Origin: an uncultured Spirochaetota bacterium
GTDB taxonomy: Bacteria; Spirochaetota; Spirochaetia; SZUA-6; Fen-1364
Direction of reading: 5' to 3'
Assembly: GCA_963734545.1 (NCBI GenBank)
Contig: CAVTHO010000009.1
Span: 287,968 to 351,967, forward strand
DNA: 64,000 bases
Every line of letters begins with the position of its first letter. The first letter of the stretch is position 1. The translations under genes were made by a program, and so were the position numbers. The notes beneath the pieces are model-generated. The model did no database searches. It was given only the letters and a program-made list of their open reading frames with translations, and was not told the DNA's origin. This document shows, piece after piece, positions 6,302 to 63,157 of this stretch.

Positions 6302-6345
6302 GCACGGACCTCCTGCGGCGCTGCGGCCAATGATTTTACGGTCGC

Positions 6346-6741: not shown

Positions 6742-6873
6742 ACGATCCGCTTCTGAATAGGATATTCGCATGCGATTCCCATTATTAACACGGGCGCCGA
6801 AAACCTGTCAAGAAAAAACTCGAGAGCCGGCCGCCGCTTCTCCCGCCCCCCGGAGCGTGCTATAGTGCGCGGG

Positions 6874-7626: not shown

Positions 7627-8481
<855 letters not shown>

Positions 8482-17937: not shown

Positions 17938-18240
17938 ATGGCATCAGTCTCTCCTGAATACGCCCTCCTGCTGGCCGGCGTTCTCTTCTGCCTGGGGCTC
18001 GTCGGCGTGATCGTGCGCCGCAACCTGCTCTTCATCCTCCTGTGCGTGGAGATCATGCTGAACGCGGCGGGGCTCGCATTCGTGGCGGCCGGGGCGCGCT
18101 GGGGCCAGCCGGACGGCCAGGTGATGTTCATATTCCTGCTCACCATGGCAGCCGCGGAGGTTGCGGTGGGACTGGCGCTCCTGATCCTGCATTTCAACCG
18201 GCGCAAGACGCTCAATGCCGACCTGATGGGGGGAGGATGA
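17938..18240 (+). CDS. nuoK: NADH-quinone oxidoreductase subunit K
   Basis: RRNL...EIMLNA and [11 protein letters not shown] motifs. Confidence 0.95.
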
Positions 18241-30564: not shown

Positions 30565-30581
30565 GACCGCAGTATACCATG

Positions 30582-31737: not shown

Positions 31738-31739
31738 CT

Positions 31740-33608: not shown

Positions 33609-34256
33609 ATGAAACGTATCCTCGCAACCCTTATCGTCATACTGATGCCCGCCCTGGTCTTTGCGGCGCCGCACGGTTCCCCGTGGGCGCGCGGCTACCC
33701 CGAAATGTTCGACCAGGATGCAGGGCCGTATGTAAAATCCGAGATCTCTCTCATCGAGAGTGAGCTTGGCACGAAAAGGCTCGGAGACTTCAGCGTGGAA
33801 GACATCGTGTCTCTTCGCGACAGGCTCAGTGTCGCCGAGCAGAAGGACCAGTACGTCAACAGTCTCGCCATGCACTCCTGGTTCCTGCCCGGGCTCGGGC
33901 AATTCCAGGCGGGCGATGTGGCGAGCGGCGTGGGCTTTCTGACACTGGACATGGCAGCCATCGCGGGGACGCTGGTGGCCGCATACTACTGCCTGCCGTC
34001 GGACCTTCGCTTCGACAGGCTGGATTACTTCAAAGACTCGTCATCCACGATCCGGAGCGCATGGAACAGCCACAGCTTCACGGACTACCTGCCCTCGATC
34101 GGCGTATTCGTCGGCGGCATGGTGATCGACCAGATCGTCCGGCAGTGGGCCTCCGCGCACGCGCGAGGCGAAGCGGTCCAGGCCGTGGATCAGGGCAAAG
34201 TCCAATTCACCCCGCGCATCGGAATCGGGTTCATGGGGTTCGGGGTGCGGTACTAG
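33609..34256 (+). CDS. Hypothetical secreted/membrane protein
   Basis: AAAGGAG RBS, signal peptide, S.FLPGLGQF TM motif. Confidence 0.75.
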   Translation: MKRILATLIVILMPALVFAAPHGSPWARGYPEMFDQDAGPYVKSEISLIESELGTKRLGDFSVEDIVSLRDRLSVAEQKDQYVNSLAMHSWFLPGLGQFQAGDVASGVGFLTLDMAAIAGTLVAAYYCLPSDLRFDRLDYFKDSSSTIRSAWNSHSFTDYLPSIGVFVGGMVIDQIVRQWASAHARGEAVQAVDQGKVQFTPRIGIGFMGFGVRY

Positions 34257-34268
34257 CAGCAGCTCCTT

Positions 34269-35232
34269 CTATGGTTGGCCTGGCTTCTCAGACAGCCAGG
34301 CAACCTTTTGCACTGACTCATGATCCATTCCGATTATGTCCCTGTAGAGCTCGGGCTTTCGCGCCATGGTATACCGGTAGCCGCCCGACTGCTGGAGTTT
34401 CCCATAGACGCAATTCCCGACGGCGACTTCGTTGTCGAATGATCTGCATTCAGCGATAATGTCGCCGAATGGATCGATTATCATCGAGCATCCATTTCTC
34501 ACCTGGTCATCGTCCATACCTATGGGATTCGTGAAAACTACATAGACCCCATTATCGTACGCTCTTGCCGGCAGCCATTTCATCAGCCATGCCCGGCCTT
34601 TCAATCCATCGAACTCACTCCTGAGCGACGTGGGATCCTTCTCCCTGTTTTCCCACAGTTTTGGCGATACAAATCCCGCGCCCGGCCGCGCCGAGGGAGT
34701 GCCCATTGTCACGTGAGGCATGAAGATGATGTTGGCGCCAAGCAGCGTTGTGGCACGCACATTTTCAATGACATTGTTGTCGTAGCAGACCAGGATTCCA
34801 CATTTCCACCCATTTATGTCAAATACAACATATTCCTGGCCGGCTTTCAAATGCGTGTTTATGAACGGGTGGATCTTGCGATACTTTGCCCTGAGGCCGT
34901 TTCCGTCGACACACACATATGCCTTATAGAGCTCATCCGCCGTGGTCTTTTCAAACAGCCCGGCAAGCACAACAATATTGTTCTGTCGGGCAATTTCAAC
35001 CAGTCTGGCTATGCTTTCTCCCTCTGGTATCAGCTCCGCCAGTTCCAGCATTTGCGATTTGTTCAACTTCATTGCAAACGTGTCAGCCGGTTATCGAGCA
35101 TTCGTGAAATGAAACTACCGCGGCCCCGGATTCGGATGCTTTCCGCGCCAGGCTGTTGATAAGGTCCAGATTGTACTTTTTATCGCCGCTCCTATGTTCA
35201 AATTGCGCCGCCGCGATCCTGAGGTCGTTCAT
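34269..35232 (-). CDS. Carbon-nitrogen hydrolase (nitrilase family), frameshift near 35080
   Basis: N-terminus IAAAQFEH...FHECSITG in the upstream frame, YRKIH and LVCYD downstream (E-K-C triad). Confidence 0.87.
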
Positions 35233-35247
35233 GATGGCTTCCTTGAC

Positions 35248-36099
35248 TCACCGGGCCCCAATCGCGTTGACGGCTGAAAGGACTATTCCTTTGAGGGCTT
35301 CCCTCACGGTCCCGCCGATGTCATGGGCCGGGCCAAACGCAGTTATCGCCAGTGCGACAACATTATAGGAAGAAACTGCCCACGCGAGAAGGCTCTTGAT
35401 CTCTTTTTCCAGCAACCCGCCTGGAGAGGCAAATCTATTGGCGTGGCCGACACCGGCATCCAATACATCCGCATCCAGATGGACATAAAGGTCCCCGGCA
35501 GGCGGCGCAGCCGCCGTCGAGATCTGGCAATCGTCATTTCTAAACTGCTCTGTAGTGACGACCCTGATCCTGCTCGATGCAAGCTGTTTTGCTTCTTCCG
35601 CATCGAGGTCTCTCGTGCCCACAAGAGTGACATGGTCTTCTTTGATGGCAAGATACCGCGAATCATTCGCCGACAGGCTCTTCCAGCATCGCCCGCATGC
35701 GATCGCAAGTGCCATCCCATCCAGGTACCCGCTCTGCGTTGTCTCAGGCGTGTTGAAATCCGCATGAGCATCGAGCCACAGCATGCTCATATCGTCACTG
35801 TGCAATCCTGACAGTGTTCCCGTCGCGGTCAGACAGTTGCCCGCAAGGACAACAGGGAGAGCACCGGATTGTACGGTCTCGGAGATTGCTTTTGACAACA
35901 GCGAGTTCAGCTTGAACGTCGACTGCGTATCGGTGAGCTGTTCGACATCACTGCAGATGATCGTCTTGCTGTCGACAGTGTGTCCGGATTCACTGAGAAG
36001 CCGACCGAGTCCAGAGCCCATCAAGCTTCCAGGGCCTTGTCCATGGCCAACGTTGTATTTGCCCATGTCGTAGGGGACAGAAACAAAGCATACGCGCAT
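35248..36099 (-). CDS. Arginase/ureohydrolase-family protein
   Basis: WLDAHADFNTPET and VHLDADVLD metal-binding motifs. Confidence 0.9.
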   Translation of the reverse strand: MRVCFVSVPYDMGKYNVGHGQGPGSLMGSGLGRLLSESGHTVDSKTIICSDVEQLTDTQSTFKLNSLLSKAISETVQSGALPVVLAGNCLTATGTLSGLHSDDMSMLWLDAHADFNTPETTQSGYLDGMALAIACGRCWKSLSANDSRYLAIKEDHVTLVGTRDLDAEEAKQLASSRIRVVTTEQFRNDDCQISTAAAPPAGDLYVHLDADVLDAGVGHANRFASPGGLLEKEIKSLLAWAVSSYNVVALAITAFGPAHDIGGTVREALKGIVLSAVNAIGAR

Positions 36100-36159: not shown

Positions 36160-38604
36160 TCACGATAAGATACTGACTTCTCCCGTAAAACCGTCCAGCT
36201 CGACAACTTCACCGTCTTTCAGCCGTTTGGTGGCATCCTGCGTGTAGTAGATGGCGGGTATGCCCATTTCCCGAGCGATTATCCCCGGGTGGTCGAAGGG
36301 GGACCCGGCATCGAACACGAGACCGGCGATGTGCGCAAGGTATGGTTCGATATTGCAGTGGCCCTCTTCGAAGACCAGGATGCTCTTCTCCTCCAGGGTG
36401 AAGGTGGGGCTTTTCGGCATGCGCACCTTTCCCCGCACCTTTTTTTGCAGCCCCGAGACACCCTTCAAGACCGTCATGGGTTGGAGCTGCGGTTCTTCCG
36501 ATTTCTCTGCATGCTGAGGAGGCTTCCCGATGAACGTCGGCGGCTTCATTCTCTTTTGATCCTGGAAGATCGATCTTCGTTTTTCGATCTCCTGGCGAGA
36601 AACACCGCCCGCTCCGTTGAGAAGAGCTTTCAGCTCGTCGAGCTGCAGGAAGAAGATGTCGCCCGGCCTGCCGAGAAGGCCATGTGCCGACAGCCATCGA
36701 TCCGCCCTCTCCAGGGCGATATTCAGGTACGCATGCTGCATGAGGTCGATGTAATAGGCGTGATCATCGCTTACCAGGAACGCTTTCTCGGCCAGATCCA
36801 GCATACTCCGAAACTCCTTTTTTTCAGGTTCGGTCAACCGGGCGAGGATCTCAGCGGCCAGCCGCTCCTTGTTTTCGAGGGTCTTGTTCAAACGCTCCTC
36901 GTATTGCCCGATGTCCCGCCCAAGAGAGGACCGTACCCACCCCAGCACCACGCTCGGAAGGTTTTTCAGCAGAGGTGGAAATGTGAAATCCCTCAGGGGA
37001 TCGATGCTGATCAGGCCGAACTCCTCCAGGTATCGTTCGATTTCCCGCAGGAGGACCTTTCCTTCCTCGGACCTGGATAGTTTGGGATACAGCACCTCAT
37101 CGTAGGGATGATCCTTGAACAGCGCCTTCAGCTCATGCGTCCCATTGACCAGCCCGGCCATTTTCATGATCAATTCCCGGCTGCGCGCAAGGCGGCTCTG
37201 TCGAAATATCAGGTCGAAGTAGTCGGGAACGGAAAGCGCACCGATCTTGCTGTCGAAGTACTCCTTCAGCGTGTATCGAAAATCCGGCGTCCTGCTGTCG
37301 ACGGGTGCTCGCCCCCAGACTGCCTGCCAGTGAAGGGACTTGCTCAGGCACAGGAAGTCGAGGCTGTCTTCGATGAAGCGCATGAGCTCTGGAGGACTGC
37401 GGGCAGTCCGGACTTGCGCCTCCAGCCTTTCCCGAGACTCATTCAGGCGGGCCAGGACGAAGTCCTGAAAGACATTCCGGCCTTCCTTGAACAGCCCCAT
37501 CATCTTTTCGAGAAAAGCTGCACTTTTCTTCTCAGCTTCGTGCATCTCCTTCGGCCTGTAGTAGATGTATCCGTTCTGGAGAATGATCTCCATGTAGTAC
37601 TGAGACAACCCTGTGGTGTCGGCCCCCTGGTTATTCCCTTCATTCGCCAGGAGAACAATCTCCCGCTGAAGAGGCGTGAGACAGTATTGGAGGTCGTCCA
37701 GCCTCCACGTATACAAACAGTCGGCATCGTCCGTCCAGACTACCGGAAAGCGAGACTCACGGAATGTGGTGATCGGCCGCGACTGCAGGATATAGAGCTG
37801 ACTACCCCGTATCGTCCACTCGATGTCCTGATAAGCGTGGAACAAATGCTCGATCTCCGTCCCCGCTTTCTTCAACGTTCCCAGGACCTGCTCGCTCATT
37901 CGCGGAGCTTTGTCGGGAACAATGAATTGAGTGAGCGTGCCGCTTGACTTGTCCAGCCTGAAGAGAGACGCGGGCTTTCCCCCCCGCACATAGTCTGCGC
38001 AGATACCCTCCACGGCGTTGATCACCATCACCTCTGAATTCATCTCCACGGTATCTGCCGTAAAGAGAACTCCGGAAGGCCTGCCATTCATAAATGGTTG
38101 TACCACTACCCCCATCCTGAGGCTTTCCAGGGTAAGCCCATTTCGCACGATGTGCGCGAGCGCGCGGTCGTGATACATCGATGCATAGCATTTTCGAACA
38201 GCCCGCAACAAGTCGGCCCGGGAAGCGACGTCGATATACGACTGGAAGACTCCGGCCATGCTGTGCCACTCGCCGTCCTCACAGACAGCCGAGGAACGGA
38301 CAGCAAGCAGCCTTTCCGGGCTGAGTGGAATCAGCTCTTCATACACGCGTCCAAGCGATCTTTCCATTTCCGGAGGAATGGCGCACTCCAGAAGGAATTC
38401 GATGATCTCATCGTTCTTTTCCAGGTATTCCTCGTGTGTGAACGGAAATTGGTTGAACGAAAGAATGTGCTCGTAATCCTCGACTGACAGGGCGTATCCT
38501 GGCAGAATGGAAATCCCGGCACGCGTCATCTCTCCCAGCGCTGCTGCCTTGCTGCCGAACAGCAAAGCATGGTCTCGCTTCACATCTCCCAGGTGAGTAA
38601 TCAT
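36160..38604 (-). CDS. PEP-synthase-like / rifamycin-phosphotransferase-like enzyme
   Basis: N-terminal ATP-grasp (GSKAAALG, AVRSSA..ED..SMAG, QDIEW, ILQSRPIT), long helical middle, C-terminal swivel His domain (SPFDHPGIIAREMGIPAI, ELDGFTGEV). Confidence 0.85.
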   Translation of the reverse strand: MITHLGDVKRDHALLFGSKAAALGEMTRAGISILPGYALSVEDYEHILSFNQFPFTHEEYLEKNDEIIEFLLECAIPPEMERSLGRVYEELIPLSPERLLAVRSSAVCEDGEWHSMAGVFQSYIDVASRADLLRAVRKCYASMYHDRALAHIVRNGLTLESLRMGVVVQPFMNGRPSGVLFTADTVEMNSEVMVINAVEGICADYVRGGKPASLFRLDKSSGTLTQFIVPDKAPRMSEQVLGTLKKAGTEIEHLFHAYQDIEWTIRGSQLYILQSRPITTFRESRFPVVWTDDADCLYTWRLDDLQYCLTPLQREIVLLANEGNNQGADTTGLSQYYMEIILQNGYIYYRPKEMHEAEKKSAAFLEKMMGLFKEGRNVFQDFVLARLNESRERLEAQVRTARSPPELMRFIEDSLDFLCLSKSLHWQAVWGRAPVDSRTPDFRYTLKEYFDSKIGALSVPDYFDLIFRQSRLARSRELIMKMAGLVNGTHELKALFKDHPYDEVLYPKLSRSEEGKVLLREIERYLEEFGLISIDPLRDFTFPPLLKNLPSVVLGWVRSSLGRDIGQYEERLNKTLENKERLAAEILARLTEPEKKEFRSMLDLAEKAFLVSDDHAYYIDLMQHAYLNIALERADRWLSAHGLLGRPGDIFFLQLDELKALLNGAGGVSRQEIEKRRSIFQDQKRMKPPTFIGKPPQHAEKSEEPQLQPMTVLKGVSGLQKKVRGKVRMPKSPTFTLEEKSILVFEEGHCNIEPYLAHIAGLVFDAGSPFDHPGIIAREMGIPAIYYTQDATKRLKDGEVVELDGFTGEVSILS

Positions 38605-43982: not shown

Positions 43983-45560
43983 TTACCATTCCTTAAGGAT
44001 AGGCCAGATTACCTCTTTGCTCATATTATTCTGCCGCACTCTGCACACGCATATGTAGTACCCGTACGGCCACAAAGGGTTCGCAACATAGGCTTTCTTT
44101 GCTATTTCCCAATAGCATTGGGATATCCGCCCTAGATCCGAGGTGACCGCTACTACGACATCCCAGGACTTCTCTCCTGGCCCCCAGAGATAGTACTGCA
44201 TGTGTCCGCTCACGGCGTGGGGAAGCCCGTACCTGGCGCCGTACAGATCGATTGCGCCCGCTTCATTGAACAATGATGCCCAGATCACGGCTTTCTCCCG
44301 GTCTTCCGGCGGCAGGCCGTCATACACCTCGGCGACTTTGTTCACCAATTCCTCCCAGCCAATTCTCATTGAGAAATGCCAGGGATACTGCGGTTTTTGA
44401 ATGGTGTAGTCCTTCACGGGCTTATAGAGAAACCCGAAGGTTCCGGAATATGCTGGCAATAGATCCAACGGAAGTATCGGCAGTGAAGCAGGAGCGACCA
44501 GGGCGCCTCCGGCCAGCAGGTATGAGACGCCGACAATTCCAAACGCTCTCTGCGATTTCATATGGGCGAGCTTCTCTTCGACGAATACCGCGCCGGCCGC
44601 CAGGAGCGGCATGAAGAGGTGAGCAAGCTCAAATACCCGGGCATGAAGCAGATAGACGACGACCATGGTGACGAGAAAGAAAATGCCGAAGAAGCTGTGA
44701 TACGTATCTCCGAAGCGCCTGAAGATGCGGTACAATCCGACGCCAAGTAAAGGCATGAGCAGCAGATTCATATTGAGCGATAGGTTGATGAAATACTCCG
44801 GAATTGAGTAATGGTAAAACCAGCGTGTATGCCCGGACCAGTATTCGAGAGTCGGCCAATGATTGGCGATCTCCCAAAACACCCACGGCGATATGACTAT
44901 AGCGAACAGCCCAACAGCGATCCACGGCCACGGCGTGAGCAAGTCCCTGCGGTGCTTTGTAGCGAGCAGAGCGATCAGGATGCCGGGCGCGGAGATAAGA
45001 ATAGTTGCCTTGGTCATGAAGGCTATCCCCGCAGCCAGACCGATGCTTACCCAGAGCATCTTGTTCCCCGTGCGTATGTAACGTACAAGAAAATAGAGAA
45101 ATACGGCGAGCGCAAGCTGATTTATGCCGTCGTAGGTGAAAAACGAGTTCGTAATGAGCCACAACGGGGTTATGATGAATCCCAGCGCTGCAACCGTCAC
45201 GGCGAAAAGCTTGCCGCCGAACTCCCTGGTGATGAGGCATACAAAAACGAGGGTCGCCGCGCCAGCGAGCGCGGGGAATATGTGGTATGCCAGCAAGGAT
45301 TCTCCCAACAGCGTGCGGCTTACTGCCACGAGTAGCGGCACGAGCGGCGGAAGGTCGAGGTAGCCGAAGGCGAGGTGCTTGCTCAAGGCGATTGTGTAAA
45401 GCTCATCGCCGAAGTAGCCGTAGTTCTGCGCCGTGAGCATATGAATCGCAAACTTCACGGCGGCAAAAGACGTGACCAGCAAGGCAAAGCCCGAAACGCC
45501 GAGAAACGACTTGCCGAGCTGCCCGGGTGGCGTGCGTCGGAAAGGGTGTATACCTGGCAT
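43983..45560 (-). CDS. GT-C fold (GT39/ArnT-like) membrane glycosyltransferase
   Basis: YGYFGDELY...LAFGYLDLPPL, many TM helices, GAID..G...GLP.AVSGH..Y.LWGPG. AGGAG RBS. Confidence 0.88.
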   Translation of the reverse strand: MPGIHPFRRTPPGQLGKSFLGVSGFALLVTSFAAVKFAIHMLTAQNYGYFGDELYTIALSKHLAFGYLDLPPLVPLLVAVSRTLLGESLLAYHIFPALAGAATLVFVCLITREFGGKLFAVTVAALGFIITPLWLITNSFFTYDGINQLALAVFLYFLVRYIRTGNKMLWVSIGLAAGIAFMTKATILISAPGILIALLATKHRRDLLTPWPWIAVGLFAIVISPWVFWEIANHWPTLEYWSGHTRWFYHYSIPEYFINLSLNMNLLLMPLLGVGLYRIFRRFGDTYHSFFGIFFLVTMVVVYLLHARVFELAHLFMPLLAAGAVFVEEKLAHMKSQRAFGIVGVSYLLAGGALVAPASLPILPLDLLPAYSGTFGFLYKPVKDYTIQKPQYPWHFSMRIGWEELVNKVAEVYDGLPPEDREKAVIWASLFNEAGAIDLYGARYGLPHAVSGHMQYYLWGPGEKSWDVVVAVTSDLGRISQCYWEIAKKAYVANPLWPYGYYICVCRVRQNNMSKEVIWPILKEW

Positions 45561-45645
45561 TCTAGCTCCTGACTTTAGGCAGAAGTTAACCATACCGTAT
45601 GTCCGGTTGTCCAGCATCCTGCTCGACGAACCTCGGCCGCCATGT

Positions 45646-45986: not shown

Positions 45987-47048
45987 TTACTGCTTCTTGT
46001 CGAACTTCATGTAGTTCCTGACCATCTTTCCGAATGCTTTGTCCTTCTTCCGTTTCTCTAGATAGGTCATCTCATAGTGCTTCGATTCTTTCATTAGTTT
46101 CAGGTAGCTCTCGTACCTCTCGGTGCTCAATTCGCCATCCGCCACGCTTGAAAGCACCGCACACCCCTTCTCAGTTGTGTGTGTACAATCAGCAAAGCGA
46201 CAGCGTTTTGTAATCGCGGAGATGTCACCAAAACTTTCCTCTATTCCAAGAGCAAAGCCCAGCATCCCCAATTCCCGCATGCCGGGCGTGTCGATGAAGA
46301 GTGCTCCATTGTCCAGGACAACCAATTGTCGTCTCGTCGTCGTATGTCGACCTTTGCCACTCTTCTCTCGCACAGGATTGGTAAAGAACTCTTCCTTCCC
46401 TACTAGTTTATTCAAGATAGTGCTTTTGCCGACTCCGGAAGACCCTATCAGACAGTAGGTTCTCCCTTTTTCTAGAATGTCCCTGAAGCGATCGTAGCCA
46501 GCCCCCGTTGCGCTGCTTAGCGGGATTACATCAATGCTGTGCTCTCTCCGTACTGCAGCGACCATTGATTCCAGGTTCGCCCCGTCAACAAGGTCGCACT
46601 TTGTAAGCAAGAGTATCGAATCGATACCTCCGTCTTTCGTCATTGCTATATATCTGTCAAGCCGATTCAGATTGTAGTCGACGTCACAAGACTGAACTAT
46701 GAACGCAACGTCGACATTTGCAGCAATTGGCTGGTAGTCGACTCTTATGCCCGAGGATCTCCGCCGCAGGATGGTTCTTCTCGGCAGTATTTCGTGCACA
46801 ATTGCGTGCGCACTCTTGTCATAATAGTCCACCAACACCCAGTCTCCGACACAAGGCATATCTTCGGCGGTCACAGCACAATACAACAGTCTGCCCGTAA
46901 GCTCGGCGGGAATCGATCCGAGCGTGCTTCCAATCATATAGCGATCTCGGTCAACCGCGATGACACGAGCTACATGGGTTTCAGCCAATAGGTTTCCCCC
47001 CAGTTTTTCTTGAAACCAGTCATCGTAGCCTAGATCTTCCAGATTCAT
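45987..47048 (-). CDS. rsgA: Ribosome small subunit-dependent GTPase A (accessory long form)
   Basis: OB fold, TKCD, GSSGVGKST, GRHTTT, DTPGMRE and CRFADCTH..EKGC. Confidence 0.93.
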   Translation of the reverse strand: MNLEDLGYDDWFQEKLGGNLLAETHVARVIAVDRDRYMIGSTLGSIPAELTGRLLYCAVTAEDMPCVGDWVLVDYYDKSAHAIVHEILPRRTILRRRSSGIRVDYQPIAANVDVAFIVQSCDVDYNLNRLDRYIAMTKDGGIDSILLLTKCDLVDGANLESMVAAVRREHSIDVIPLSSATGAGYDRFRDILEKGRTYCLIGSSGVGKSTILNKLVGKEEFFTNPVREKSGKGRHTTTRRQLVVLDNGALFIDTPGMRELGMLGFALGIEESFGDISAITKRCRFADCTHTTEKGCAVLSSVADGELSTERYESYLKLMKESKHYEMTYLEKRKKDKAFGKMVRNYMKFDKKQ

Positions 47049-47095
47049 GTAACGGCCCCCATGCGCACACTACCAGGTTGAACTCGTTGTTTGCA
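47047..47095 (-). repeat. Probable collapsed attC remnant
   Basis: Minus strand TGCAAAC-AACGA-GTTCAACC (R''-5 nt-L'') just after the upstream stop, and GTTACAT (R'-like) overlapping the rsgA ATG. No L' box. Confidence 0.45.
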
Positions 47096-47106
47096 TCCCT
47101 TCTCTG

Positions 47107-47823
47107 CTATTTATTATAAACTACCGGCATCTTAAACCGCCACTCTCTCCATAAACTTTCATTTATTAGCAAATCAGCCATAAAATGGCTTACATTTATT
47201 CTGCTGGTTTTTCCGGCATTGAATATTGGACTTCTCACTGGAGATTCATGCACTTCGTACGTACTATTAGTATCTTCGTTAACTAATGTATCCGGGCGTA
47301 CGGCTATCCATTCCATCTTCTCATTATCCTTTCCAATCTCTTCGTGTAGATAATCAGCAGCCCTAACATTGTCACGATGAGGGGGTAGAAGTAGTTTCAG
47401 GATTGATAGGATAATTCTTTCTCCTAATGAATTCTTCTCTCCTGTTATGCTATTTGTGTAGCCTGTCGTGCTCATAAGAATAAGCTTTACCTTTTTATCT
47501 CCCTTCTCCTTAACTATTATGCTGATTTTTCTTATTGTATCGGACACTAAATTACGTGGTTTCCCAAATATCCCTCTGATCGTAATATTATGACCAAGGC
47601 AAGAGACTATTGCATTACAATCTTGCAGGAGGCTGCTCATTTCTGAATCATTGAATTCGGCGATATTCCCTTTTTCGATTTCAACTAGTGGATTATCGAG
47701 CATTTCTGCCGATAGAATTGCCCGCTCCCTGACGACAACCCTGATATTGATTTGTCTTTTGATCAATTGCATGACAACTAATCTCCCGGTAGCGCCACTA
47801 GCTCCAAGAACTAATACTTTCAC
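47107..47823 (-). CDS. NAD(P)-binding oxidoreductase (atypical SDR, flavin reductase-like)
   Basis: VLVLGASGATG Rossmann motif, WIAVRPD. Noticeably AT-rich. Confidence 0.88.
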   Translation of the reverse strand: MKVLVLGASGATGRLVVMQLIKRQINIRVVVRERAILSAEMLDNPLVEIEKGNIAEFNDSEMSSLLQDCNAIVSCLGHNITIRGIFGKPRNLVSDTIRKISIIVKEKGDKKVKLILMSTTGYTNSITGEKNSLGERIILSILKLLLPPHRDNVRAADYLHEEIGKDNEKMEWIAVRPDTLVNEDTNSTYEVHESPVRSPIFNAGKTSRINVSHFMADLLINESLWREWRFKMPVVYNK

Positions 47824-48032
47824 ATCGCCTCCTATTGCCGGCCGCCAGCGTGTAATACTCCGTCACCACGTCCGCCGCAGGCTTCCTGGTCGTCTACCAG
47901 AATCGTCGTGCGGGCCGCAAACGTGAGATCCAGCACAAGAAAAAGAAAGACACCGGGATTCCTCATGAGCACCCCTCCGTGGACTTCTCCTGCGATCGAT
48001 TCCACCGACTTCATCCACCTCGTCAAGGCGTG

Positions 48033-48953
48033 CTATATCTTGCCGCTATGTTCCACAGTTATGACTACACTTCCTTTTTTGTGACCGTGTTCGACATATC
48101 TGTGAGCCTCGACGATTTGTTCCAGCGGATAGCGCCGATCTATGACCGATTTTATCTTCCCAGCTTCAATAAGTTTTTTAAGAAAGACCAAACCTTCAGT
48201 ACGTTGACGTTCGTTCGGTCCCCCTTTCATAATTGTCACGTAGGTCCCATTTGTAGTCAATGCCTTCCTGCATTTGGATAACGCGCTCTTGCCAACCGCG
48301 TCAAAGATGAGATCATAGCGCTCTCCTCTTCCCGCAGAATCCTCCTTGGTGTAGTCAATTACCATATCCGCACCAAGAGATTTCACCAATTCTGCATTCC
48401 TTGTGCTGCATACCCCGGTAACTTCTGTCCCATAGTACTTGGCAAGCTGTACCGCAAAAGTCCCAACGCTTCCAGAAGCTCCAATGATAAGCACTTTCTG
48501 TCCGCGCTGGATATTACCCTTGTCTTTAAGACAATATAAAGGTGCAATGCCCCCATAAGGAACGGCAGCAGCCTCCTCATAGGTCATGTTGGCTGGTTTT
48601 ATTGCCACCACCCCATCTTCGGACAAACATTTATACTCTGCATAGGCGCCGAAGCTAAAACCGCAAGATGCAAAGACTTGATCGCCTTCCTTAAACAATT
48701 TTGCGTTTTTGCCTACTGCTTCAACTTCCCCGGCCAAGTCAAACCCCAATATTTTTACTTTTATTGGCCTTATCAGACCATTATAAAGTCTCGCGGCAAA
48801 TGGATCGGCCTTTCGCATGCGCCAGTCCCCTGCTGTTACTGTTGTCGCATATACCTTGACCAGGATTTCATTGTCCCTGGGAACAGGTTTTCTTACCTCT
48901 TTGAGCTGAAGAACATCGGGAGGGCCATATTTCTCGTAAACTATTGCCTTCAT
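48033..48953 (-). CDS. MDR-family NAD(P)-dependent quinone oxidoreductase / alcohol dehydrogenase-like
   Basis: [30 protein letters not shown] and GHKKGSVVI motifs. Confidence 0.92.
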
Positions 48954-48970
48954 AAGTGTGAATCGCGCTT

Positions 48971-49864
48971 TCAGGTTTTTTTCAGCCATTTGTCGAAAAA
49001 ATCGAAAATGGCCTTTCGGGCCGCATTGTCTCTCATGTAATTCGCATGTCCCATACCGCGTTTGACCAACAGAGTATGAGACGCGCCAACTTCCTTCATT
49101 TTTGCATCCAGCAATTCCGCCTCGTGAAACGGCATCAGCACGTCCTTGTCGCCGTGAATAGTGAGGATCGGCGGATCATCGGCGCTCACGTAGCTCAACG
49201 GACTCGCCAGCCGATATCTGTCCTGCGCCACCCCTGGAGCGCCGCCGAGCAGATTCTCTACTGTTGTTTTCATTCCTCCCTCGTTCCAGAAACCGACCAT
49301 GTCAGTTGGCCCGCCGATGTTTACGACTGCCTGGACGCGGCTGGAGATCGAGAAGTCTTCTCCCTCTCCCTCCAGATCATCGGAAGGACCGGTCAAACCA
49401 AGGAGGAGTGCAAGGTATCCCCCTGATGAGAAGCCGATTGCTCCGATCCGATCCGGGTCGACCCGGTACTGCGCCGCGTGCGCGCGCAGCCAGCGTACGG
49501 CGCTCTTCACATCGTAGAGCTCAGCAGGAAATTGATATGAGACTTTGTTGTTCTGTGTGATCGTGATGAGTCGCCGGTCGATTGCGGCTGCCACGTACCC
49601 CCTCTTCGCGGCATTCGGAATGTCGTAATAGAGGGACTTGCGGTCGAGGAACCGGTCCTGATGGGCCCAGTCATCGATGATGTAAACGATCGCAGGGAAA
49701 GGTCCGTCTCCTGTCGCTGGCAGAGCGATGTCGAGCTTGAGAATCAGATCTCCCCTCTGGGCATACGTGATGTCGTCCTGCCTGATGAAGTCCGATTGCG
49801 CAAGCAGCGGGGCCTGAGAGAGGAAGGACAGCGCGAGGAACAGTGCGATTCCGAGATTTCTCAT
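48971..49864 (-). CDS. Secreted alpha/beta hydrolase (esterase)
   Basis: Signal peptide, [21 protein letters not shown] and GMGH. Confidence 0.88.
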
Positions 49865-49966
49865 GGCAAGCCTCCCCTGAACCATGGAACTATTCGGCTT
49901 TATCGTATCACTCAATTTGACTGGGTCAAGCTCAGTATCGACGGTTCAAGCAAAGAGCCGCTTGCC

Positions 49967-50872
49967 TTACTTTCTTCTAAATATGAACACAATTGATGAA
50001 CCCATCAAATACAAAGCTGCCCCAAGAAACACCAGCCCAGTAATGATTGTAAATGTTGATTTTGTCCACGGTTCGAGCAAGAGCATGAGTGCTATTGCGC
50101 CGACGCTGCCAACTATTGCGATGATCGCGGTTACAAGTTTCCTGGAAAAGACAAAGGGAATTGCTAGCGCGAACGCCAAGTCGGCAAGAACATTATTAAC
50201 GATGTAGGACACAGCCTCTTCTGGCGTGTTGCAGGCAAAGACGTTGAGAAGGTACCCCCCAAGCGACAATACGAGCAGAACAATCAAGACGACCGACAAG
50301 GTAGATGATGACTTCACTGCCCTTTGATCCTTTTGCTGTGTCCTTTTCCATTTCTTCTTCGGATATTGGGTCGCCCTGGTTAGCAGTGAAAGTGGGAGCA
50401 AGAGCGGCAATAGATAGAAAAACCTCCTGTATGTAGCCGACCTCGTAAGCTTGCCTTCCCATTTGTCAGCAGCGTCTTCAGCGTCGATATGTTGGCGAGC
50501 AATCGTACGGTGAATATGATGGCCGACTTCGTGAAAAAGTACTGAGCTGATACGCAATCTACGCATAAACCTGCGGCCTATTCTCATGCCACGGAAGATT
50601 TGATCTACAAGGATGACAATACCAGCGGCATGAGAAGGCGAAGCGTGTGTGTAGAAGCCTTTCACCTCTCCGAGAGCGTATCGTCTGCCCCTGGCAATTG
50701 CACGTTTCCTTCGTTCCTGTCTGTTCATTTCTCCCGATGTAGTTACGTAGACTTCCGAGAGTCCCTTCAGGTAAGCGCCTGGTATTGACGATAAGAGCCA
50801 CGTGATGTCTCTTTCGAATCCGCCAGATAGAGCTAAGGCTCCTGTGGAGCATCGCACATCAGGTATCCCCAT
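49967..50872 (-). CDS. Hypothetical protein: HExxH zincin-like N-terminus plus multi-TM C-terminus
   Basis: VLFHEVGHHIH, Arg-rich, followed by about four TM helices. AGAGG RBS. Confidence 0.6.
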   Translation of the reverse strand: MGIPDVRCSTGALALSGGFERDITWLLSSIPGAYLKGLSEVYVTTSGEMNRQERRKRAIARGRRYALGEVKGFYTHASPSHAAGIVILVDQIFRGMRIGRRFMRRLRISSVLFHEVGHHIHRTIARQHIDAEDAADKWEGKLTRSATYRRFFYLLPLLLPLSLLTRATQYPKKKWKRTQQKDQRAVKSSSTLSVVLIVLLVLSLGGYLLNVFACNTPEEAVSYIVNNVLADLAFALAIPFVFSRKLVTAIIAIVGSVGAIALMLLLEPWTKSTFTIITGLVFLGAALYLMGSSIVFIFRRK

Positions 50873-50883
50873 CTGATCGCCTC

Positions 50884-50912
50884 TTGACACCTTTCTGTCG
50901 CTATTGTACTCT
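50884..50912 (+). promoter_or_regulatory. Sigma70-type promoter for the HTH-tsf pair
   Basis: TTGACA-17 nt-TACTCT, 55 nt upstream of the ATG at 50968. Confidence 0.6.
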
Positions 50913-50967
50913 ATTGGGGAAATGAATGGTACTTTTATAGTCGTTTGTAGGATAATAGATCTTCTGC

Positions 50968-51414
50968 ATGAGTAGCGAACTACTTTCGGTGGACCAGGTG
51001 GCGCAGATACTCGGGCTCCACCCACGAACGGTCAGACGCTTCATTCGGGAGGATCGTCTCAAGGCGAAAAAGCTGGGAAAGGAATGGCGCATCCTCCGGA
51101 CGGACCTTGACGTACTCACCGGGAGGGAACCGAGCACCCGAGAGCAAGTGAGCGGTAGTATGCAGGTCTCGGCAGTGGCCGACGTGCTCGTCGCCAATCA
51201 GGAGGAAGCAACCCGCATCTTCAACTCCATGCTCGCCGCTGTCACTGCAAAAGGCCCAGAATACGGAGTCGTGCATTACCAGTCTCTCTACATCGAGGAT
51301 GACCGCAAGGCCCGACTCATGTTCTGGGGAGATGCTGCCTTCATCGGGCAAGCACTGATCACTCTGCAGAGAATATCGTCGACATTCGGACTACCGAGAG
51401 AGGGAAACTCGTGA
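50968..51414 (+). CDS. Excisionase-like (HTH_17) DNA-binding protein with C-terminal domain
   Basis: LLSVDQVAQILGLHPRTVRRFIREDRLKAKKLGKEWRI. Confidence 0.88.
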   Translation: MSSELLSVDQVAQILGLHPRTVRRFIREDRLKAKKLGKEWRILRTDLDVLTGREPSTREQVSGSMQVSAVADVLVANQEEATRIFNSMLAAVTAKGPEYGVVHYQSLYIEDDRKARLMFWGDAAFIGQALITLQRISSTFGLPREGNS

Positions 51415-52241
51415 GTGGGCTTGTGGCTGCGATCAAACAACTTCGAGAGAACACTGGTGCGGGCATGATGGATTGCCGGAGGGCGTTGGAGTCGACAGGT
51501 GGGGACATCGACAAGGCAGTTGTCGTTCTGAAAGAACAGGGGCTTCTTCAGGCTCGGGAGCGGCAAGACCGGGAAACTACGGAAGGTCGGGTGTTCCTCA
51601 AATTCAACGACGAGAAGGCGGTACTGCTCCACTTGGCGTGTGAAACTGATTTCGTCGCCAGGAACGCCAGTTTCATCCGCTTGGGAGAAAAGTGCCTGTC
51701 GCTGGCTTTTGAAAGCTCAAGCGTAGAAGAACAGCTGACTGCACTGATCGACGAGGCAATTGGCCGGATCAAAGAGAACATCGTAATGCGCAGTCTGAAA
51801 ACTCTTCGCGCAAACCAGAACGAACGCCTTTTCGCCTATGTTCACGGCGAAGGAAGGATCGGCGCGGTGATAGCTCTGTTCGCCCCTGATCCTGCCACCT
51901 GGGACTGCGAAGAGCCCCAGAAGTTCGCTGCTGATCTGACTCTACATGTCGCCGCCTTCGGCCCACTGTATCTATCACGAGACTCCGTAGATTCAACGTA
52001 CATGGAGCAGAAGGAAACCGAATTCCTTGCGGATGCACGGGCCCTCGGCAAGCCGTCGCAAATTATTCCAGGAATCGTGCGCGGAAAGCTGAACAAACAT
52101 CTTTCAAAGATCTGCCTGTTGGAACAAGCCTTCATACGTGATGAAACATCGAGTGTCGAAGAAGTGCTCCGCGGGCTCAAAGATAAAGGCGGTCCAAGTG
52201 TCCGTGTCAGTGGTTTCTTGTACCAGTGTGTCGGCCACTGA
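51411..52241 (+). CDS. tsf: Translation elongation factor Ts (stand-alone paralog)
   Basis: IKQLRENTGAGMMDCRRAL, CETDFVARN, YVHGEGRIG, LHVAA, GKP..I...IV.GKL and CLLEQAFIRD. GTG overlaps the HTH stop (GTGA). Confidence 0.93.
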   Translation: MSGLVAAIKQLRENTGAGMMDCRRALESTGGDIDKAVVVLKEQGLLQARERQDRETTEGRVFLKFNDEKAVLLHLACETDFVARNASFIRLGEKCLSLAFESSSVEEQLTALIDEAIGRIKENIVMRSLKTLRANQNERLFAYVHGEGRIGAVIALFAPDPATWDCEEPQKFAADLTLHVAAFGPLYLSRDSVDSTYMEQKETEFLADARALGKPSQIIPGIVRGKLNKHLSKICLLEQAFIRDETSSVEEVLRGLKDKGGPSVRVSGFLYQCVGH

Positions 52242-52582
52242 TCGTTCAACGTCGAGCTTCCCGTCATTTGTTCCTTCAGATCATAGAGACTCAACGGGTC
52301 AGGAACCGGAAACGTAACTGAGCCATCATTGTCCCACAGTCTCTTGTCCACCCTCCTCCCGCGCTCAATTGCCCATTGATAGATTTTCTCATTTCCTCCC
52401 GACTCTACGAGAAGAGGACTTCGCTCCGGGTTTTCCAGATAGGAAGGGACCAGAACAAACCTGAGCTTTCCATCGCAAACATATCTCTTGAAAGCCTCTA
52501 GCGTTAAGATCGAATCCGTGCCGGTGAAACCCCCGATCGTCATTACAGGGACATTTCTGTTCCCGTTGTAGAGCATCAGCAA
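52238..52582 (-). pseudogene. 5'-truncated C-terminal domain of a YkcB/YycA-like GT-C glycosyltransferase
   Basis: PVMTIGGFTGTDSILTLEAFKRYVCDGKLRFVLV...LYDL. No upstream part, abuts the half-attC. Confidence 0.6.
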
Positions 52583-52600
52583 AGCGGTGAACTATTACAG

Positions 52601-52620
52601 CATTCAGCGAGATGTTGGGC
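52601..52620 (-). repeat. Truncated attC (R'' and L'' half only)
   Basis: Minus strand GCCCAAC-ATCTC-GCTGAATG, 11 nt after the stop at 52632. Bases 52614-52626 match the cassette's other end (53599-53611, reverse complement) at 12 of 13 positions. Confidence 0.7.
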
Positions 52621-52631
52621 GCAATACAAAC

Positions 52632-53585
52632 CTAGAATAGTTTGGGAATCTCGATCATGCCTGCTTGAACGAGAATGAAGAATAGTATTGCGAACGCACC
52701 AAGAATCCTATTGAACAACCTTGCTCGGCTGAATATCAAGCTGCCGACGCGGACAGGGACCACCCCTACAAAGACTAGCAGAATGACTCGAACGACTCCA
52801 AAGGTCGCTATTTCTGTTTGGTTCTCGGCAATTATCTCTAGTACGTCGATCCCGACAAAGCCCACTATCATCAGAACCGATACGACGACGATCGTTGCCG
52901 CATTCATTCTTGGACCGATACGCAGACGGCGGAAAAGCAACTTGTCTAGTAAGTATGCCAAGAGAAGCGCAACGACTATTGAGAGGACTGCCGCTATTGC
53001 CTTTGCCCCGATCGAAACACGCATAGCTGTTGCGACGTACTCGGCAGGGAAGACAAGCACAATAGTGAGTACGAGATAAGGGATATATGAAAGTGATCGC
53101 GAAAAGATGTTGCTTTTTGGGGGCCGATAGCTTGGGTCTTCAGAGCGCCGCCTCTCGATTCCATAGTCAAGCCCCAGTGCGAATCCGAAGAACAACGCTT
53201 GCACAATGAGCAATGGCCCGCTAATCACAGGCAGCTTGAGAACGCGAAAGAGAAGGACTGCCGAGAGCACAAATGTGATAATCATGACACCGGAAAAAGA
53301 AGTCAGTTCAACCGATCGTTGGAGAATCTCCTGAGGCTGCCGCTTGCCAGCGTATATCACCGTTGCGCAGTACATCTGCGAGACATACAGGGCAATTCCG
53401 AAATAGATCAGAAAGAGTAGACCCATATGCAGCAGTTGCGATAGGAAGGTACCGCTTTGCGGAGCAAAAAGCTCAAGCTTGAACTCTATTGGAATGGTGA
53501 TCGTTGAGGCCAGCAGGAATATGTCAACTAACATGTCGACCACGCTGAAGCGGTTAGTTGACCTGTACTTTTCTATTTCACTCAT
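52632..53585 (-). CDS. Hypothetical polytopic membrane protein (gene cassette)
   Basis: About nine hydrophobic segments. Starts just after the attC R' box, AGGTGG RBS. Confidence 0.8.
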   Translation of the reverse strand: MSEIEKYRSTNRFSVVDMLVDIFLLASTITIPIEFKLELFAPQSGTFLSQLLHMGLLFLIYFGIALYVSQMYCATVIYAGKRQPQEILQRSVELTSFSGVMIITFVLSAVLLFRVLKLPVISGPLLIVQALFFGFALGLDYGIERRRSEDPSYRPPKSNIFSRSLSYIPYLVLTIVLVFPAEYVATAMRVSIGAKAIAAVLSIVVALLLAYLLDKLLFRRLRIGPRMNAATIVVVSVLMIVGFVGIDVLEIIAENQTEIATFGVVRVILLVFVGVVPVRVGSLIFSRARLFNRILGAFAILFFILVQAGMIEIPKLF

Positions 53586-53604
53586 ACGCGTCACCACCTA
53601 TTGC

Positions 53605-53725
53605 GTCCAACATAGAGTTGAGCTGCGCCGCCGACCAAAAGCCGAACGGCGGAAGTTCAATTTCCGGCTGCAAGTCCCGCTTTTCTAACGTAGCCTTAGG
53701 GGACAATTGCAACGATCTGTTACAA
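53605..53725 (-). repeat. Integron attC site 1 (121 bp)
   Basis: Minus strand TTGTAAC-AGATC-GTTGCAAT...GCTCAAC-TCTAT-GTTGGAC. Confidence 0.85.
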
Positions 53726-53814
53726 CCAATTGTAACGCGCATCCAGAAAGTGTATGAATGCGCCGTGGCCAGTCATACCGGGGGTTGAAAAACTACACGA
53801 GGAGTTTTCAAAAG

Positions 53815-61260: not shown

Positions 61261-62197
61261 GGCGTGGATTCAACTAGTAAGTGCAACGCTATTTCGAAGA
61301 AATGAGAGAGCTGAGATGTTGTATGCTTCGATTCCTACCACAGAAAGGATGCATACATGAGTACCTATCACCAACTCTCTCAAGAAGAACGATACATCAT
61401 TACGGGCCTCAGGGTAAGTCGCCACTCGAAGGCCGACATCGCCCGGGTGCTTGGTCGATCTCCTAGTACCATCAGCAGGGAACTGATCCGCAATAAGAAG
61501 CTTTGCGATGGCAAGTATCGTGCTGATGAGGCTTATTACAAGAGCATTGCCAGGCGGCGACGCGTGCGCCGTGGTTTTCACCATACTGTGCAACAATGGG
61601 ATCAAGTCGTTCTTCTACTAAAGGAGAAGTGGAGTCCCGAGCAGATCTCCAACTGCTTGAAACTCCATGGATCTTTCACTATTAGCCACGAGACGATCTA
61701 CAAGTACATCCTCCACGACAAAAAGAACGGAGGTACGCTGTTCACATATCTGCGAATCATCCCCAAAGTCCGCAAAAAGCGCTACAACTCCAAGGATTCA
61801 CGCGGAATTCTCCCTGGAAAGCGTCATATTTCAACTCGTCCCTATGAAGTAGAGACACGCAAGGTGCTCGGCCACTGGGAGGGTGATACCGTGATGGGCA
61901 GTGATCTCCACCACTGCATTCTCACCCTCGTAGAAAGAAAGTCAGGCCTTGTCATCATCAAGAAGATGAACTCACGAACAGCTGCTGAGGTCATTCGGGC
62001 AGCCGTTATGGCCATCAAAGAACACGAGGCCCACTTCAAAACACTCACCTTGGACAACGGAACGGAGTTCCAACGAATACGAGATCAGAGGGCAACGCCG
62101 TTGGCCTTTGCCGTTTCAATCAGACTGAGAGCGTCGCGCGGCATGGGCTCACGCGGAGAGCCACTGAAGAGCCAATTCTTTCTGCTCAATCAGAGGA

Positions 62198-62554
62198 TCA
62201 CACTGAAGGGCCGCCTGGGCGGTCCAGTTGCAGAAACGCGGGAATCCAGAAATCAATCCCTTGCAGCAGGAAGCTCAGTTGCTCGCCGCTGATCTCTGCT
62301 GCCTCGGCTTGATTTGTTGGCCAAGGAAACTTGTCCTTCTCCAAGCGCTTCAGCCACAGACAGAAGCCATTCTTGTCCCAGTAGATGATCTTCAGGATTC
62401 GTCTGTGCTTGTTGCAGAAAAGGAATAGGTTCCCTTCAAATGGATCCATGTGAAGCTCCTCGGAGACGATGATCGAAAGCCCGTTGATTTGCTTTCGCAT
62501 GTCAGTGGCTCCAGGCTTCACGAACATCCTGACCTTGGTCCAGTCCAGGATCAT
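62198..62554 (-). CDS. tnpB: IS66 accessory protein TnpB (Orf2), C-terminus disrupted
   Basis: TDMRKQINGL, LFLFCNKHRRILKIIYWDKNGFCLWLKRLE motifs. Confidence 0.9.
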   Translation of the reverse strand: MILDWTKVRMFVKPGATDMRKQINGLSIIVSEELHMDPFEGNLFLFCNKHRRILKIIYWDKNGFCLWLKRLEKDKFPWPTNQAEAAEISGEQLSFLLQGIDFWIPAFLQLDRPGGPSV

Positions 62555-62853
62555 CTCAGGCTCTCCAGAGCCTTGATGAGCTCTCCGAGCAGCGGGACAT
62601 CAAAGCCGTCTCGTATTTCGATGCGGTATCTATCGGCGACGACGAGCTCAAGGCTTTTCTTCACGTTTGGAATCGTTTGGGCCTTCAATTCAACGAGCCC
62701 GTGAGACCTCTCTGCATCGCGAATCCGCGAAAACCAGTAGTCCAAAGTAGATATCTTCAGATGATTCTCTGTACAGAAAGCTCGGCGCGTAGACCCGCTC
62801 TGTTGGAACGCTTTGCGTCGTCTCTTCCAAAGTTCAAGCTTGTCGCACTTCAT
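62551..62853 (-). CDS. tnpA: IS66 accessory protein TnpA (Orf1)
   Basis: W....FQQSGSTRRAFC.......TLDYW HTH. Overlaps the tnpB start. Confidence 0.85.
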   Translation of the reverse strand: MKCDKLELWKRRRKAFQQSGSTRRAFCTENHLKISTLDYWFSRIRDAERSHGLVELKAQTIPNVKKSLELVVADRYRIEIRDGFDVPLLGELIKALESLR

Positions 62854-63157
62854 CGTTGCCTCCAGCAGGATCAATTCCTTGGGGCAAGGATGCTACCAAT
62901 CGAAGGTTGGGAGTAGGTGCGGTTTATTTAGCGCTTACGCAACGAAAACCTAAACGGCCTTATCCGCCAATACCTCCCCAAGGGAATGTGCATGAGCGGC
63001 ATCACCCAAGCCCACTGCAACTACATTGCCTTCAAATTGAACTCAAGACCCCGAAAACGCCACGGCTACAGAACACCCCAGGAGGTATATAATGCAGACT
63101 CTCGATAATTGCACTTCAACCTTGAACCTAAGTGGCTATCTCACATCTCCTCGTCAT

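Follow-up and report, generated by a model that had tools for sequence, protein, structure and literature searches.

A 64,000-nucleotide (nt) stretch of the genome of an uncultured Spirochaetota bacterium (the window, whose numbering is used here unless another contig is named; the genome, G000, comprises 5.14 Mb in 10 contigs and is 89% complete) carries a second gene for the elongation factor EF-Ts directly behind the gene of a small helix-turn-helix (HTH) protein. We consider it reasonably probable that this pair is a two-gene operon for a separately regulated, accessory EF-Ts isoform. The regulator gene, named HTH-X, extends from 50968 to 51414 on the plus strand and encodes 148 amino acids (aa) from an ATG start; the second EF-Ts gene, tsf2, lies on the same strand at 51411 to 52241 and encodes 276 aa from a GTG start. 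Bases 51411-51414 read GTGA, so that the start of tsf2 overlaps the TGA stop of the regulator gene, and in every locus seen the distance from regulator to tsf2 falls between -4 and +19 nt. An earlier note on this DNA had described an excisionase-like HTH protein with an extra C-terminal domain, coupled through this overlap to a full-length EF-Ts that keeps the TDFV motif, driven by a TTGACA-17-TACTCT promoter, inverted relative to the surrounding genes and located outside the usual tsf operon, and all of these features were found.

In the account we favor, the pair's own promoter would express a DNA-binding protein of the BldC/Xis type together with the alternative EF-Ts. The regulator probably controls its operon, for which it would bind its own promoter, and expression of tsf2 would be conditional. 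The tsf2 product would act by nucleotide exchange on the single EF-Tu of the cell. The gene itself would descend from a housekeeping tsf that was duplicated or transferred within the spirochaete order and was captured once behind the regulator; since then the two genes would have been passed on and exchanged together, as an integron cassette in at least some of the lineages.

The tsf2 protein has the hallmarks of an EF-Ts over practically its whole length. It matches the tsf model TIGR00116 with 214.1 bits (cut-off 104.05) over residues 6-275 of 276, and the EF_TS family PF00889 with 147.4 bits (5.3e-43; cut-off 27), and the TDFV motif occupies residues 79-82. Fifty-five positions are at least 85% conserved both within the tsf2 clade and among 158 other EF-Ts sequences, including K9, L11, R12, CETDFVA at 77-83 and, in the N-terminal TGAGMMDC helix, TGAG at 15-18 (T15, G16, A17 and G18) as well as C22. 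The TDFV motif and the N-terminal helix are the parts of EF-Ts that contact domain I of EF-Tu. A study on Escherichia coli EF-Ts names K51, D80, F81 and I125 as vital for EF-Tu binding and assigns TDFV, D80 and F81 a role in the contact with EF-Tu (PMC9529903); the tsf2 counterparts of the four residues are R51, D80, F81 and I120. The predicted structure, with a predicted local distance difference test score (pLDDT) of 92.2, has the complete EF-Ts architecture including the two hairpin helices (195-211 and 219-234). It superimposes on E. coli EF-Ts chains from EF-Tu:Ts complexes with template modeling (TM) scores of 0.77-0.81 over 274-276 columns, and a Foldseek search gave E values of 6e-23 to 4pc3_C and 9.5e-23 to 1efu_B over 275 columns. 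As part of the favored account, we therefore hold with the same moderate assurance that tsf2 encodes a functional alternative EF-Ts that would carry out nucleotide exchange on EF-Tu.

Seventeen positions are conserved in the tsf2 clade and rare (<20%) in other EF-Ts: A7, I8, R23, E27, L46, C95, F100, V125, R139, W164, G184, K201, E204, D208, M218, I242 and R243. Several of them fall on the first helix of the hairpin, shortly ahead of A209, the window residue that aligns with Ala202 of E. coli. The EF-Ts_N family was undetected in the close tsf2 clade in precomputed Pfam annotations. The public gene call for tsf2 (P0001, 257 aa) begins 19 codons too late; the contig of one near-identical relative spans the gene junction and has an ATG at 51411, where the window has GTG.

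The earlier note had proposed checking for a separate tsf linked to rpsB, and this gene is present on contig 7. G000 has two tsf matches above the cut-off, and the second one lies in the order Maf, ribosomal protein S2, EF-Ts, RRF, UppS, CdsA and RseP (in Pfam names, Maf-Ribosomal_S2-EF_TS-RRF-Prenyltransf-CTP_transf_1-Peptidase_M50). Its product is 38% identical to that of tsf2. In the window, Pfam scans of 63 chosen open reading frames (ORFs) revealed no gene for S2, UMP kinase or RRF. A single EF-Tu gene was found in G000 (697 bits; the next match reaches 101 bits), and tsf2 is therefore without a private EF-Tu.

The pair is likely to be transcribed from a real promoter at 50884-50912 on the plus strand, which was recognized by reading the sequence and consists of TTGACA (50884-50889), a 17-nt spacer and TACTCT (50907-50912); the ATG of the regulator gene lies 56 nt downstream. 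A consensus scanner reported no sigma-70-like site between 50500 and 52700, and it omits this site because TACTCT fits TATAAT at only 3 of 6 positions. Two metagenome loci, L113 and L114, whose regulator is 63% identical to that of the window, have TTGACG, a 17-nt spacer and TACTCT followed by ATTG in the same place. Because the -35 element, the spacing and the -10 element with ATTG are kept there despite a different spacer sequence, we accepted the site as the likely promoter.

The EF-Ts tree was calculated from 122 rows. These comprise all tsf2-type sequences, 37 housekeeping sequences from the order and 27 sequences from elsewhere in the phylum; of a further 95 unlabelled hits, one in three was included. 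All 27 tsf2-type rows, that is, those linked to the regulator or close to such sequences, form one clade with a Shimodaira-Hasegawa-like approximate likelihood ratio test (SH-aLRT) support of 99 and a stem of 0.30. The clade is nested in a larger one of 71 rows (SH-aLRT 98) that holds the housekeeping EF-Ts of the order, and the rpsB-linked EF-Ts of G000 groups with its genus. Taken together with the identity of 38%, this position indicates that tsf2 is an old offshoot of a tsf of the order and not a recent copy of the resident gene. In a tree of the regulator family with 52 rows, 18 of the 19 tsf-linked regulators form a 20-row group (SH-aLRT 89) together with two of unknown partner, six of the tsf-linked ones being so labelled by their closeness to the window clade only, without a contig match. 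The regulator and tsf2 trees have a branching order in common, namely the window clade, then the branch of L016 and L117, and then L018. Because the two trees match, a single capture followed by joint inheritance appears to explain the pair best.

Near-identical contigs from four public DNA sequencing runs differ from the pair at 88 sites, 40 of which were listed by the search tool. Among the listed differences, 10 of 17 in the regulator gene and 15 of 23 in tsf2 are synonymous (25 of 40 in total, compared with about 24% expected at random), the non-synonymous ones numbering 7 and 8, respectively. Although the count is rough, it clearly points to purifying selection on the pair. DNA of the pair is present in small shares (at most 0.15) in 20 DNA sequencing runs; no RNA run was listed.

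The pair recurs outside the window, although its distribution is rare and patchy. Among 61 related genomes, six that belong to other families of the order carry a full-length relative of the regulator; two of the six, G035 (L006) and G050 (L008), have a tsf directly behind it. Both also have rpsB-tsf-frr-uppS with full-length matches at the protein level. The 20 other genomes of the genus contain neither a full-length regulator relative nor a DNA match to the pair. A second full-length tsf was seen in 4 of the 92 genomes of the order: G000, G035, G050 and G015, the last of which has two equal-scoring copies and 9% contamination. The loci L016 ("Spirochaetales bacterium") and L018 ("uncultured Spirochaetaceae bacterium") show the same arrangement and may come from the same genomes as G035 and G050. 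No further pair was found in the 401-genome phylum sample and the class sample. In metagenomes, 169 relatives of the regulator were found and 80 loci kept, and in four of the latter (L113, L114, L117 and L153) the regulator gene is followed by a tsf. In L113 and L114 a transposase gene of the IS110 type cuts tsf2 after 66 codons, the L113 regulator being intact; in L117 the pair lies at the contig end. The soil contig L153 (1112-1279) has a regulator of the hydrolase branch followed, after 134 nt, by 49 residues that are 47% identical to the N-terminus of tsf2, at which point the contig stops. This may be an independent association of the regulator with a tsf beyond the spirochaete clade, and was not counted as a second origin of the unit because the fragment is too short.

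A search of 5.8 billion proteins returned 24 clusters with 56-100% identity to tsf2 and lengths of 272-281 aa, and 17 of the 24 have exactly 276 aa; full relatives overall range from 272 to 290 aa. Below these 24 no cluster exceeds 47% identity, and this tier holds the housekeeping EF-Ts of Sediminispirochaeta and Marispirochaeta. The corresponding search with the regulator gave 26 hits. For 10 of the 23 other close tsf2 clusters, the longest contig is equal in size to that of a close regulator hit: 24,360 nt for P0003 and P0125, 131,929 nt for P0004 and P0127, 1,745 nt for P0005 and P0131, 2,237 nt for P0006 and P0133, 3,744 nt for P0008 and P0134, 3,395 nt for P0009 and P0145, 29,917 nt for P0013 and P0137, 2,580 nt for P0014 and P0139, 21,918 nt for P0015 and P0140, and 3,309 nt for P0021 and P0141 (tsf2 cluster and regulator hit, respectively). 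The identities of the two proteins to their window counterparts track each other, with 87/87, 71/66, 66/65, 65/67, 63/63, 62/60, 62/60 and 58/56% for EF-Ts and regulator. The remaining 13 clusters comprise 11 on contigs of at most 4.3 kb and two on long contigs (227,664 and 102,122 nt) without a listed regulator partner. The earlier note had asked whether HTH_17-tsf pairs recur and form a clade of their own, and had named a one-off under relaxed selection as the contrary outcome; recurrence in other genomes and metagenome contigs, the single clade and the excess of synonymous differences all speak for the former. Its suggestion of a mobile accessory character is likewise supported by the patchy distribution, and by the integron setting described next.

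To the right of the pair, and outside the operon, lie five attC-like repeats of about 125 nt, placed 2.4-2.7 kb apart between 53602 and 63999, the last of which ends at the end of the window and of the contig. The leftmost (53602-53731, plus strand) was identified by repeat finding, nhmmer and a covariance model, and the repeats score 73.5-133.9 bits with the latter. The pair stands just outside the first attC, at a distance of 1.36 kb, and the space between them holds a YkcB_C fragment (52373-52582) and a 321-aa membrane-protein ORF, both of them remnants on the minus strand. In an alignment of 30 repeats, the ends ...AACATAGAGTTCAGTTGCCCC and GGGGACAACTGCAACGATTTGTTA vary together, CAGTTGCCCC occurring with GGGGACAACTG and CAGTAGCGCC with GGCGACTACTG. 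The consensus folds with 13 pairs; the DNA fold of a single copy is no better than that of shuffled sequences (z 0.35). Judged by their inverted ends and pair-preserving changes, the repeats behave as attC sites. Contig 6 of G000 contains 24 further copies (6-38157) and starts with one, and an integron integrase is encoded near the start of contig 5 (2875-3807; TIGR02249, 404 bits, cut-off 265). In our reading of these sequences, G000 has a large chromosomal integron whose parts are distributed over several contig ends.

A model built from only the five copies of the window detected an attC of this family in L113 as well (E 2e-8), with its end about 35 nt ahead of the -35 element of the unit; the downstream side of this locus was lost to an insertion sequence (IS) and the contig end. 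Since this attC lies upstream of the promoter, the pair appears to begin a cassette with its own promoter there, and the unit probably is or was an integron cassette. In two other genomes of the genus, an attC-like site lies near rsgA, at 9 nt from its stop in one (L241, 9672-9800) and at 870 nt from its start in the other (L242, 8068-8193). Except for a hydrolase of 43% identity, these genomes have none of the window genes between rsgA and the first attC. These single sites suggest that the rsgA neighbourhood is a recurrent attC-linked insertion site in the genus. The G+C content of 45987-53590 is 0.49-0.55, compared with 0.62 in the 46 kb to the left.

The N-terminal part of the regulator (residues 5-48) matches HTH_17 (PF12728) with 50.5 bits (2.6e-13; cut-off 27), and the protein matches the excisionase model TIGR01764 "excise" with 40.3 bits (cut-off 28.8). 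Some 90 further residues follow, and residues 60-148, approximately, matched no Pfam or NCBIfam family. In the AlphaFold model (pLDDT 85.8), a disordered linker joins a winged helix (5-51) to a beta-alpha-beta-beta-alpha domain (66-140). The N-terminal domain matches the folds of BldC (Z 8.3; root-mean-square deviation 1.6 over 51 residues), the Xis protein of mycobacteriophage Pukovnik (Z 8.1) and the excisionase RdfS (Z 7.2). The C-terminal domain resembles ferredoxin-like designs with Z scores of about 9 (up to 9.2), within the generic range of the tool. A function could not be assigned from its fold, as only generic matches to ferredoxin-like, KH, Pcc1 and secretin-N domains were obtained, with Z scores of 7-9, a range that the tool calls common; the best score for this part in the ESM Atlas was 0.84, to unnamed clusters only. 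The earlier note had taken this domain for the sensor, but no feature of it points to sensing. In view of its generic fold it may simply oligomerise, which is at least as likely. PADLOC gave a below-par match of the regulator HTH to mad1 (30 bits), and PHROGs gave excisionase-type HTH families only. The predicted complex of the regulator with the tsf2 protein scored 0.00, which counts neither for nor against binding. The regulator does not have the adjoining integrase that an excisionase works with: Pfam scans of the ORFs from 28 to 64 kb found no tyrosine or serine recombinase beside the regulator, only transposase genes of IS type beyond 61 kb, the integron integrase being on another contig.

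The regulator belongs to a two-domain family (HTH_17 plus ferredoxin-like domain) that has no family name; at E <= 1e-30, a protein library clustered at 50% identity holds 135 of its representatives. Fifty downstream ORFs were scanned, 5 of an initial 55 having been dropped as duplicates of listed loci. In 26 of the 50 the gene after the regulator encodes an alpha/beta hydrolase with a length of about 280-300 aa, and its start codon often overlaps the stop of the regulator gene; the others are two DUF4180, one CMD, one APH, one MacB/FtsX and two HEAT proteins, and 17 without a family. Loci of this family include L115-L172 from metagenomes and L053, L055, L058, L059, L014 and L017 from genomes; among spirochaete genomes, too, the second gene encodes a hydrolase or DUF4180. 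On these sequences, the regulator family with an alpha/beta hydrolase is a widespread, unnamed two-gene unit. Because the hydrolase is the usual partner, tsf2 seems to have replaced the usual cargo of an older unit of a regulator plus one gene. Viewed from the regulator, the pairing is thus less exceptional than it had first seemed. In two Firmicutes loci (L019 and L020), a relative of the regulator with extra Cys/His residues in the linker precedes CopZ and a CopA-type ATPase.

Could the second EF-Ts serve as a protective or decoy isoform, as the earlier note had proposed? Its surface would then be altered where toxins, phage replicases and antibiotics exploit the EF-Tu:EF-Ts complex, and once switched on it would sustain translation or withhold a host factor. 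The tsf2-specific residues K201, E204, D208 and M218 are located on the helical hairpin of the model, and according to PMC9071432, the coiled-coil domain of E. coli EF-Ts touches tRNA, its hairpin has a role in toxin activation, and the tsf coiled-coil mutations A202E, R219P and a deletion lead to resistance to CdiA-CT tRNase toxins. Furthermore, EF-Ts is a subunit of the Qbeta replicase (PDB entries), and cassettes of chromosomal integrons are reported to hold many anti-phage systems (bioRxiv 10.1101/2024.07.02.601686), which fits the integron context. However, the divergence is not concentrated in the hairpin: identity between the two groups is low across all EF-Ts domains (0.33-0.48), the hairpin reaching 0.62 within the tsf2 clade. 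Moreover, PADLOC and PHROGs gave no match for the EF-Ts, no toxin, immunity or phage gene adjoins the pair in any locus seen, and the link to contact-dependent inhibition toxins is an analogy from E. coli. We regard this explanation as unlikely, and equally doubtful is its more specific form, in which a mobile, cassette-borne and self-regulated EF-Ts with a fixed different surface (K201/E204/D208 on the hairpin and L46/Q47 on the N-terminal helix) would keep up EF-Tu cycling, or deny a host factor, during attack on or hijacking of the housekeeping EF-Tu:EF-Ts pair by tRNase toxins, RNA-phage replicases or EF-Tu-directed compounds. If true, it would be the first accessory immunity function that derives from a core factor of translation and is exchanged by way of integrons.

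That tsf2 is instead the working EF-Ts of a cell whose rpsB-linked tsf is broken appears very improbable. The 5' end of the latter gene (L004, 5447-5560, on contig 7) reads in three frames and, compared with two genomes of the genus, has two single-base insertions. Both insertions fall within or next to runs of A and G, the gene is otherwise 91% identical to the copy of the genus, five sibling assemblies with few contigs (G009, G014, G018, G021 and G022) also have a fragmented tsf, and G035 and G050 keep a full-length-matching rpsB-linked tsf besides the pair. Other genes in the window are broken as well: a NorB-type gene (4059-6472) is split into two ORFs with positions 1-59 and 78-180 of a cytochrome-c-like domain, and a ubiE-type methyltransferase ORF (6865-7623) matches only the last 43 positions (189-231) of its profile, both being signs of indel errors in the assembly. 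Because of these broken genes, the sibling fragments and the identity elsewhere in the gene, the insertions in the rpsB-linked tsf are probably assembly errors too. A redundant duplicate without a distinct role, kept by chance, would explain why no function-specific feature was found, why the pair is present in 3 of 92 genomes of the order, and why the 401-genome class sample yielded only the window's own genome at E <= 1e-82. Against this, the clade is old and diverse (besides the 24 close clusters it has two deeper branches), its full members vary little in length and keep their motifs, synonymous changes are in excess and the regulator has co-diverged, so that we give the idea scant credence. 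Own-promoter integron cassettes are often toxin-antitoxin pairs, and a stabiliser of this kind, in which tsf2 would sequester EF-Tu and arrest growth and the HTH protein would be antitoxin and repressor, would agree with a small HTH gene placed first and coupled to a second gene, with weak sub-cut-off matches of the HTH (20 bits to an Xre-like HTH and 16.8 bits to AbiEi_4), and with an own promoter beside a cassette array. Yet tsf2 retains every sequence hallmark of a working exchange factor, and the hydrolases, DUF4180 and CopZ/CopA proteins that the regulator family also precedes are not toxins. The interruption of tsf2 next to an intact regulator in L113 is the opposite of what the loss of an antidote would call for, though compatible with loss of a toxin. 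We see only the slightest chance of such a system here.

Several points weigh against the account of a separately regulated EF-Ts isoform itself. A simple inverted-repeat search upstream of the pair in the window found no operator, and the ATATGATAT-type palindromes upstream of L016 and L117 are not common to the window. Because the regulator family precedes many unrelated genes, the pairing tells little about the role of the EF-Ts. No attC copy is present to the left of the pair, where the covariance model found only a match of 7.9 bits (E 2.7) between 40000 and 53601; the term cassette is thus supported only for the relative L113. The EF-Ts tree comes from a fast search with no bootstrap replicates and omits 63 of the 95 unlabelled rows, the synonymous count comes from the 40 of 88 differences chosen by the tool in mixed, low-depth contigs, and adjacency of the genes on the ten equal-size contigs is deduced from contig size as a proxy.

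On its left side, the pair is flanked by five genes on the opposite (minus) strand (45987-50872), for an RsgA GTPase, an NAD-binding protein, a zinc-type dehydrogenase, a BD-FAE hydrolase and an HExxH membrane protein. In L016, a Peptidase_MA gene lies upstream of the pair; comparison with the HExxH membrane protein (49970-50872) showed the two to be unrelated (E 2.7). An Rfam search of the window from 45 to 64 kb returned no match at E <= 0.1. On the other side, a 246-aa ORF on the minus strand (51842-52582) has a YkcB_C domain at residues 9-70 only, and its remaining 176 codons extend, in antisense direction, into tsf2 at the 3' end. The ORF resembles the final part of a glycosyltransferase gene whose stop was lost by a frame error or rearrangement. 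The DNA of 52264-52585 is the piece that alone matches G001 (72%).

Within the integron, the reading direction of the array could not be decided from ORF strands on contig 6, where the longest ORF is on the plus strand in 16 and on the minus strand in 7 of 23 units, several of them being a repeated 408-aa ORF. This ORF occurs five times (963-2189, 7132-8358, 16978-18204, 30528-31754 and 34090-35316) and ends 33-36 nt from the right-hand attC in four of the five units and 1,122 nt from it in the fifth; a 405-aa ORF at 36210-37427, 665 nt from an attC, may be a sixth copy. From this arrangement, the 408-aa ORF probably belongs to an IS that targets attC sites. Also on contig 6, a tyrosine-recombinase-like gene (44828-45637) is flanked by a few more attC-like repeats in the other orientation. 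The last cassette-sized unit of the window (61357-62874) contains an IS30-like transposase ORF (HTH_38 and rve) and, on the other strand, an ORF for IS66 Orf2 (TnpB_IS66).

What would an alternative nucleotide-exchange factor offer beyond the resident one? The pair raises this question and opens it to testing, as it places a core factor of translation among the accessory genes: tsf2 represents a distinct, selected clade of EF-Ts paralogues that appears to travel and co-diverge with its regulator in an integron context. The analysis also brings out an unnamed regulator family that heads many two-gene units, mostly with an alpha/beta hydrolase.

Compared with known systems, the regulator resembles the small MerR-like winged-helix proteins BldC, Xis and RdfS in the sequence and fold of its N-terminal 50 residues. 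It differs from them by its extra ferredoxin-like domain of about 80 residues, by the absence of an adjoining integrase in the window, and by its place at the head of two-gene units in which the second gene varies. The pair is similar to the own-promoter cassettes of sedentary chromosomal integrons with respect to the attC array nearby, the integrase in the genome and the upstream attC of L113, but unlike integron cassettes it has no left attC in the window and is separated from the right one by 1.36 kb with two minus-strand remnants. It is also unusual for an integron cassette to hold two genes, one of them for a regulator. The common view of EF-Ts is that of a housekeeping factor with a single gene copy, and one full-text literature search found no description of bacterial EF-Ts paralogues, nor of a stand-alone one with its own regulator. 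The tsf2 protein shares with housekeeping EF-Ts (E. coli 1EFU and 4PC1-7) the ubiquitin-associated (UBA)-like N-terminal domain, the TDFV core, the helical hairpin and the C-terminal strand, but its gene stands behind a dedicated HTH gene instead of in an rpsB-tsf-frr operon, and it forms a clade of its own. Additional EF-Tu genes exist in Streptomyces; these are paralogues of EF-Tu, unlike tsf2. Plant plastid proteins with two EF-Ts domains likewise provide more than one EF-Ts, there fused in tandem within one protein (PMC12156993, PMC8343077).

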